From NCBI RefSeq assembly GCF_003334335.1, contig NZ_QOWQ01000230.1: 245 bases of DNA; one strand, written 5' to 3'. A program made the translations under genes and the position numbers. Below are positions 1 through 55 of the stretch, one piece after another. Source of the DNA: Escherichia coli. Lineage in GTDB: Bacteria; Pseudomonadota; Gammaproteobacteria; Enterobacterales; Enterobacteriaceae. The notes beneath the pieces were generated by a model, which worked only from the letters and a program-made list of their open reading frames with translations, searched no databases and was not told where the DNA came from. Numbering within the stretch: position 1 is the stretch's first letter; the number at the start of each line of letters is the position of its first letter.

Positions 1-55
1 CGATTTGCTGGTTGTGGTGATGAAGAAAGCCACTGCAGGCATCACGATTAGCTGA
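1..55 (+). CDS. 3' end of upstream ORF entering from left edge (frame 2: ...[17 protein letters not shown], stop TGA 53-55); probable C-terminus of a J-like tail tip / host-specificity protein of a lambdoid prophage
   Basis: Frame 2 is open from the window edge to TGA at 53-55. Frame 1 is also open to TAG at 49-51 (...RFAGCGDEESHCRHHD*), so frame choice is uncertain. Frame 2 is preferred because its hydrophobic, beta-strand-like composition looks more protein-like. Identity as J-like rests on synteny (in lambda, lom lies directly downstream of J with a ~60-bp gap), not on recognising the peptide. Confidence 0.4.
   Translation, partial: [17 protein letters not shown]

Follow-up and report, generated by a model that had tools for sequence, protein, structure and literature searches.

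Assignment of the reading frame at the upstream edge of a lambdoid J–lom junction in Escherichia coli

Which of two overlapping open reading frames ends the upstream gene in a 245-nucleotide stretch of Escherichia coli DNA (the whole of which is called the window here), and what does that gene encode? The stretch opens inside a gene, and its first 55 bases can be read in either of two frames: frame 1 (bases 1–51) translates as RFAGCGDEESHCRHHD and stops at a TAG at 49–51, and frame 2 (bases 2–55) runs for 17 codons to a TGA at 53–55. Frame 3 has two stops at 15–20 and is then open as MHKVCAAILSAAICLAVSGAPAWASEQQ... from the ATG at 123. An earlier note on this DNA had reported that frames 1 and 2 are both open from the window edge, which translation confirms, and had held that 17 codons are too few to choose between them, with which we agree. 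It had left the C-terminus ambiguous; that ambiguity is real inside the window, but at the level of the locus it is removed by the upstream sequence of the nearly identical prophage described below, which decides for frame 2.

The sequence that lies beyond the window edge was read from homologous loci. A megablast search with the window found matches in 4,393 of 5,426 complete E. coli genomes (median, 2 places in each) as well as in 179 phage records; eleven chromosomes stood at 99.6% identity (one mismatch) among the matches listed, and the features under every annotated match were "tail tip host specificity protein J" and "Lom". Locus L001, a prophage of E. coli UPEC-245U, is identical to the window at 244 of 245 positions, and L002, phage PhiR5_1, differs from it at 8. 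Ten further loci were fetched beside these two, and the choice of frame rests on these 12 near-identical or related loci, which span three C-terminal sequence classes.

Upstream of the TGA, L001 shows no interruption of frame 2 for 1,195 codons, whereas frame 1 meets a stop 26 bases ahead of the window edge (window −26) and comprises only 24 codons in all; frame 3 comprises 15. In L002 frame 2 is open for 1,166 codons and the frame-1 stop is likewise at −26. A frame-1 stop at this position is present in L001 and six other loci, and across all the loci examined the frame-1 open stretch is 16–47 codons long. The earlier note had proposed to look for the frame that remains open over more than 1 kb of upstream sequence, and this is frame 2; because that frame is long and frame 1 short, the ambiguity stems from the length of the window and not from the locus. 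The annotation agrees: the RefSeq and GenBank annotators place the end of the J coding sequence at the equivalent of window position 55 in 12 of 12 loci, and in L001 and L002 the annotated J gene is 3,474 nt long and ends at locus position 5055, which corresponds to window 55. The frame assignment and the family membership discussed below are direct observations on these loci, and we consider it virtually certain that window positions 1–55 are the 3′-terminal part of a J gene from a lambda-like E. coli prophage, read in frame 2 and ending at the TGA. The features of the window are collected in Table 1.

Table 1. Features of the 245-nucleotide window (positions are those of the window).
Feature	Positions	Strand	Description	Basis
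J 3′ end	2..55	+	Last 17 codons and TGA 53–55; end of the predicted C-terminal receptor-binding domain	Annotation, upstream open reading frame, profile, alignment, conservation
Frame-1 open stretch RFAGCGDEESHCRHHD and stop	1..51	+	Non-coding off-frame reading of the J 3′ end; TAG 49–51	
Terminator-like hairpin between J and lom	74..101	+	Stem 74–81/86–93, GAAA loop, T-rich tail 93–98, 100–101	
Shine-Dalgarno-like GAGAGG	112..117	+	5 bases before the lom ATG at 123	Read from sequence
lom 5′ part	123..245	+	Ail/Lom family outer-membrane beta-barrel protein; signal peptide MHKVCAAILSAAICLAVSGAPAWA, then mature N-terminus; runs off the window	

How surprising is a second open frame at the window edge? 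In the J gene of L001, 16-codon off-frame runs are free of stops at 36% of positions in the offset that corresponds to window frame 1 and at 43% in the other offset, and the expectation for a stop-free run of this length from base composition is 0.53. The double open frame is no more than a chance coincidence. Third-position GC content was uninformative for the choice of frame, with values of 0.44, 0.53 and 0.52 in the three frames over the last 352 bases of J.

Comparison of the 12 loci bears on the same choice from another side. The TGA at 53–55 is invariant in all 12. Over the 51 coding bases, among nine distinct versions of the sequence, 15 variable columns fall at frame-2 codon position 3, 7 at position 1 and 4 at position 2 (one-sided binomial p = 0.009), and in the close class, which carries DLLVVVMKK, the corresponding counts are 13, 2 and 1 (p = 1e-4). 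Peptides read in frame 2 differ from that of the window by 0–8 residues and those read in frame 1 by 0–12, and whenever the DNA differs at all the frame-1 peptide always diverges more (4–12 residues versus 1–8). This substitution pattern is the one left when frame 2 alone is coding and the alternate frame is free of constraint, and it points to purifying selection in frame 2. The two marks of a coding frame, a long upstream open reading frame and substitutions gathered at third positions, were thus both found for frame 2 and not for frame 1.

The reading in which the upstream gene ends in frame 1, at the TAG, with a Cys/His-rich tail, draws on the fact that frame 1 is open over window positions 1–48. 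The upstream stops described above, which leave this frame short everywhere examined, stand against it, as does its poor conservation: the TAG is missing in 8 of the 12 loci, two of these (L007 and L012) carry a frame-1 stop already at window 1–3, and no annotator calls a gene end in this frame. Because neither its stop nor its sequence is conserved, the Cys/His-rich peptide, which the earlier note had entertained as a possible C-terminus, is not a real one. Frame 1 as the true C-terminus was rejected on its upstream stops, its non-conservation and the annotation, and it is refuted in the homologous loci; we give it a negligible probability for the window as well.

It might also be imagined that both frames are used, through a programmed −1 frameshift late in J, or through a small gene overlapping it, either of which would yield a minor product with the frame-1 tail. 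Nothing beyond the openness of both frames speaks for this. Bases 1–48, read in frame 2, contain no slippery heptamer of the form X XXY YYZ, so a programmed frameshift is unsupported; the frame-1 sequence and stop are not conserved; 13 of the 16 variable columns in the close class lie at frame-2 third positions and give no sign of a second constraint; and an off-frame open stretch this long has a probability of about 0.36 in J. Dual use of the frames was rejected on the missing heptamer and the missing second-frame constraint, and we hold it to be extremely improbable. Translation of the 24-codon frame-1 stretch in this one lineage, as a very small overlapping open reading frame or as a frameshifted, Cys/His-tailed isoform of J, is an equally far-fetched prospect; if it were true, the result would be a minor tail-tip variant.

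The earlier note had taken the gene that ends here to be a J-family host-specificity or tail-tip protein, and annotation, profile and structure matches all bear this out. The frame-2 product of L001, whose DNA is identical to the window over bases 1–126, is a J protein of 1,157 amino acids. It matches the NCBIfam model lambda_TipJ (NF049904) with 2316.9 bits against a curated cutoff of 1950 bits, protein residues 1–1157 aligning with profile positions 1–1163 of 1163; this test was run on the L001 protein, of which the window itself carries the last 17 codons only. PHROG matches to phrog_31 ("central tail fiber J") and phrog_2148 reach the C-terminal residue 1157, and the structures matched by J are those of lambda gpJ (8iyk, 8xcj) and 9wca. 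The alignment to J-family proteins that the earlier note had suggested was also carried out, with the last 157 residues as query: the alignment of the frame-2 tail extends to the last residue (428 of 428) of the J chain of 9wca (9wca_J), and in lambda gpJ the tail aligns to ASDVQVMVIKKQALGISV, up to residue 1131 of 1132. Since the tail reaches the ends of these chains, the frame-2 stop coincides with the C-terminus of structurally characterised members of the family.

The trimeric central fibre carries, at its distal end, the C-terminal Ig-like receptor-binding domain of gpJ, which in phage lambda binds the outer-membrane receptor LamB and triggers DNA ejection, a description that covers the lambda–LamB pair only (PMC11101478). 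The 17 codons in the window would accordingly specify the very end of the C-terminal receptor-binding domain of J (tail-tip attachment protein, central tail fibre and host-specificity protein are names for the same product), and by homology with lambda gpJ this domain would lie at the distal end of a trimeric tail fibre and bind an outer-membrane receptor. It is from this homology that we infer both the receptor-binding role of the domain and the receptor used.

The genes around J are arranged as in other lambdoid phages. PhiR5_1 has the order L, K, I, J, Lom, fibre and fibre assembly, and the UPEC-245U prophage has a C40 peptidase (K), a tail assembly protein (I), J, Ail/Lom and a tail fibre; the lambdoid tail-tip order (L, K, I, J, then lom/stf) is present, as in lambda. 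Downstream of the tail fibre genes, at 8727–9830 of L001, lies a gene for a YadA C-terminal domain-containing protein, annotated "putative adhesin/invasin" in PhiR5_1, which is possibly lysogenic-conversion cargo of the prophage.

Could the window instead hold the end of a pseudogene or of a decayed prophage remnant, with neither frame coding? Some relatives do have disrupted tail genes. In phage JLK-2012 (L003, 1–955) J is annotated as two coding sequences, a "central tail fiber J" that ends at 283 and a "host specificity protein J" at 332–955, and the gene appears interrupted, whether by a frameshift, by a stop or through a sequencing error; in Stx2_14040 (L004, 1023–1349) the position of lom is occupied by an annotated 327-nt hypothetical protein that looks like a truncated Lom. 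Against this, an intact J in the closest copies of the window satisfies the curated full-length model, complete-genome phage records such as PhiR5_1 (host E. coli C) contain sequence of the same class, and the substitutions indicate purifying selection in frame 2. We therefore think a pseudogene end very unlikely, if a little less so than the use of frame 1 in any form, and retain the reading as the end of a J gene in frame 2.

The remainder of the window fits the same junction. One terminator-like site was found in it versus 0.3 expected, and the 8-bp stem of this hairpin dominates the fold of the intergenic region (z = −2.2). Paired changes preserve the stem across all 12 loci (GCGCC/GGCGC, GCGTC/GACGC and GCACC/GGTGC), the compensatory replacements being C-G to U-A at 79/88 and G-U or G-C to A-U at 78/89. 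Lambda_4C10 (L011) has the hairpin too, although it lacks lom; in that phage (1109–1996) the hairpin follows J and a tail fibre gene comes directly after it. The GAGAGG motif is identical in 10 of the 12 loci, the others being L012, where it reads AAGAGG, and the lom-less L011. A scan of the window for sigma-70 promoters found none.

The Lom annotation begins at the equivalent of window 123 in L001 and L002. The lom product of the L001 copy matches phrog_108 (Lom) with E = 2.5e-95 over positions 1–199 of 199, and the NCBIfam Ail/OmpX equivalog models match it below their cutoffs only, as is expected of a paralogous subfamily; its N-terminus, as read from the translation, resembles a signal peptide. 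The sole difference between the window and its closest genomes is at position 127, where the window has an A, which makes Lom residue 2 a His (MHK...), and all 11 lom-bearing loci (L001–L010 and L012) have a G, which makes it Arg (MRK... or MR...). Either a private substitution or a sequencing variant may account for this A, which falls in the N-region of the signal peptide. On the minus strand, open reading frames at 48–233 (61 amino acids) and 59–211 (50 amino acids) lie antisense to the 5′ end of lom and the intergenic region; they are annotated in no record examined, and we found no evidence that they are genes.

When L001 J is compared with other J classes, DNA similarity starts abruptly at two points, near window −94 and near window 17 (about 4906 and 5017 in L001). 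These breakpoints suggest recombination junctions inside the last ~50 codons of J, and they suggest further that the J 3′ end, the hairpin and the 5′ end of lom travel as a conserved block beside variable receptor-binding sequence. Because J genes are mosaic in this way, the upstream part of J in the true source of the window may belong to another J type; frame 2 is used in all 12 sampled loci, across all three C-terminal classes.

The relevance of these results is limited to correct annotation: the upstream gene is to be recorded as ending in frame 2, at the TGA. Almost nothing can be learned from a second frame that stays open for about 17 codons at the edge of a window, and the window covers a well-known lambdoid J–lom junction, which about 80% of complete E. 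coli genomes contain.

How closely does this junction resemble systems already described? Lambda gpJ (8iyk, 8xcj, 8xck; NF049904) gives a collinear full-length match, with E = 0 for residues 1–833 and a second stretch at 863–1156. The protein studied here passes the family model of lambda gpJ above its cutoff, and the two proteins occupy the same genomic place (after K and I and before lom) and share the shape of their C-terminal motif, a hydrophobic strand followed by KK, xxGIS(V/I) and the end of the chain. They differ in length (1,132 amino acids in lambda versus 1,157 here) and in their C-terminal receptor-binding domains, which have diverged to 117 bits over 156 residues, and the DNA of lambda-type records aligns with the locus over a limited stretch only, roughly window −94 to window 100, at ~77% identity. 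Given this divergence of the C-terminal domain, the receptor specificity may differ from LamB. The closest solved domain is the C-terminal fragment named "A8 gpJ 713" (PDB 9wca, 9wcb), which matches the last 157 residues with E = 1.7e-54; it aligns through the last residue of its chain and its tail differs from that of the window at 2 of 20 positions, and it departs from the protein studied here in mid-domain loop lengths, with indels of 4 and 5 residues. Finally, the J–lom junctions of Stx-converting and other lambdoid E. coli prophages have the same arrangement of J stop, hairpin, Shine-Dalgarno sequence and lom start, with no substantive difference, the window being one base (127) away from its best matches. 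The J 3′ end at window 1–55 is thus part of an already known, ordinary lambdoid junction.
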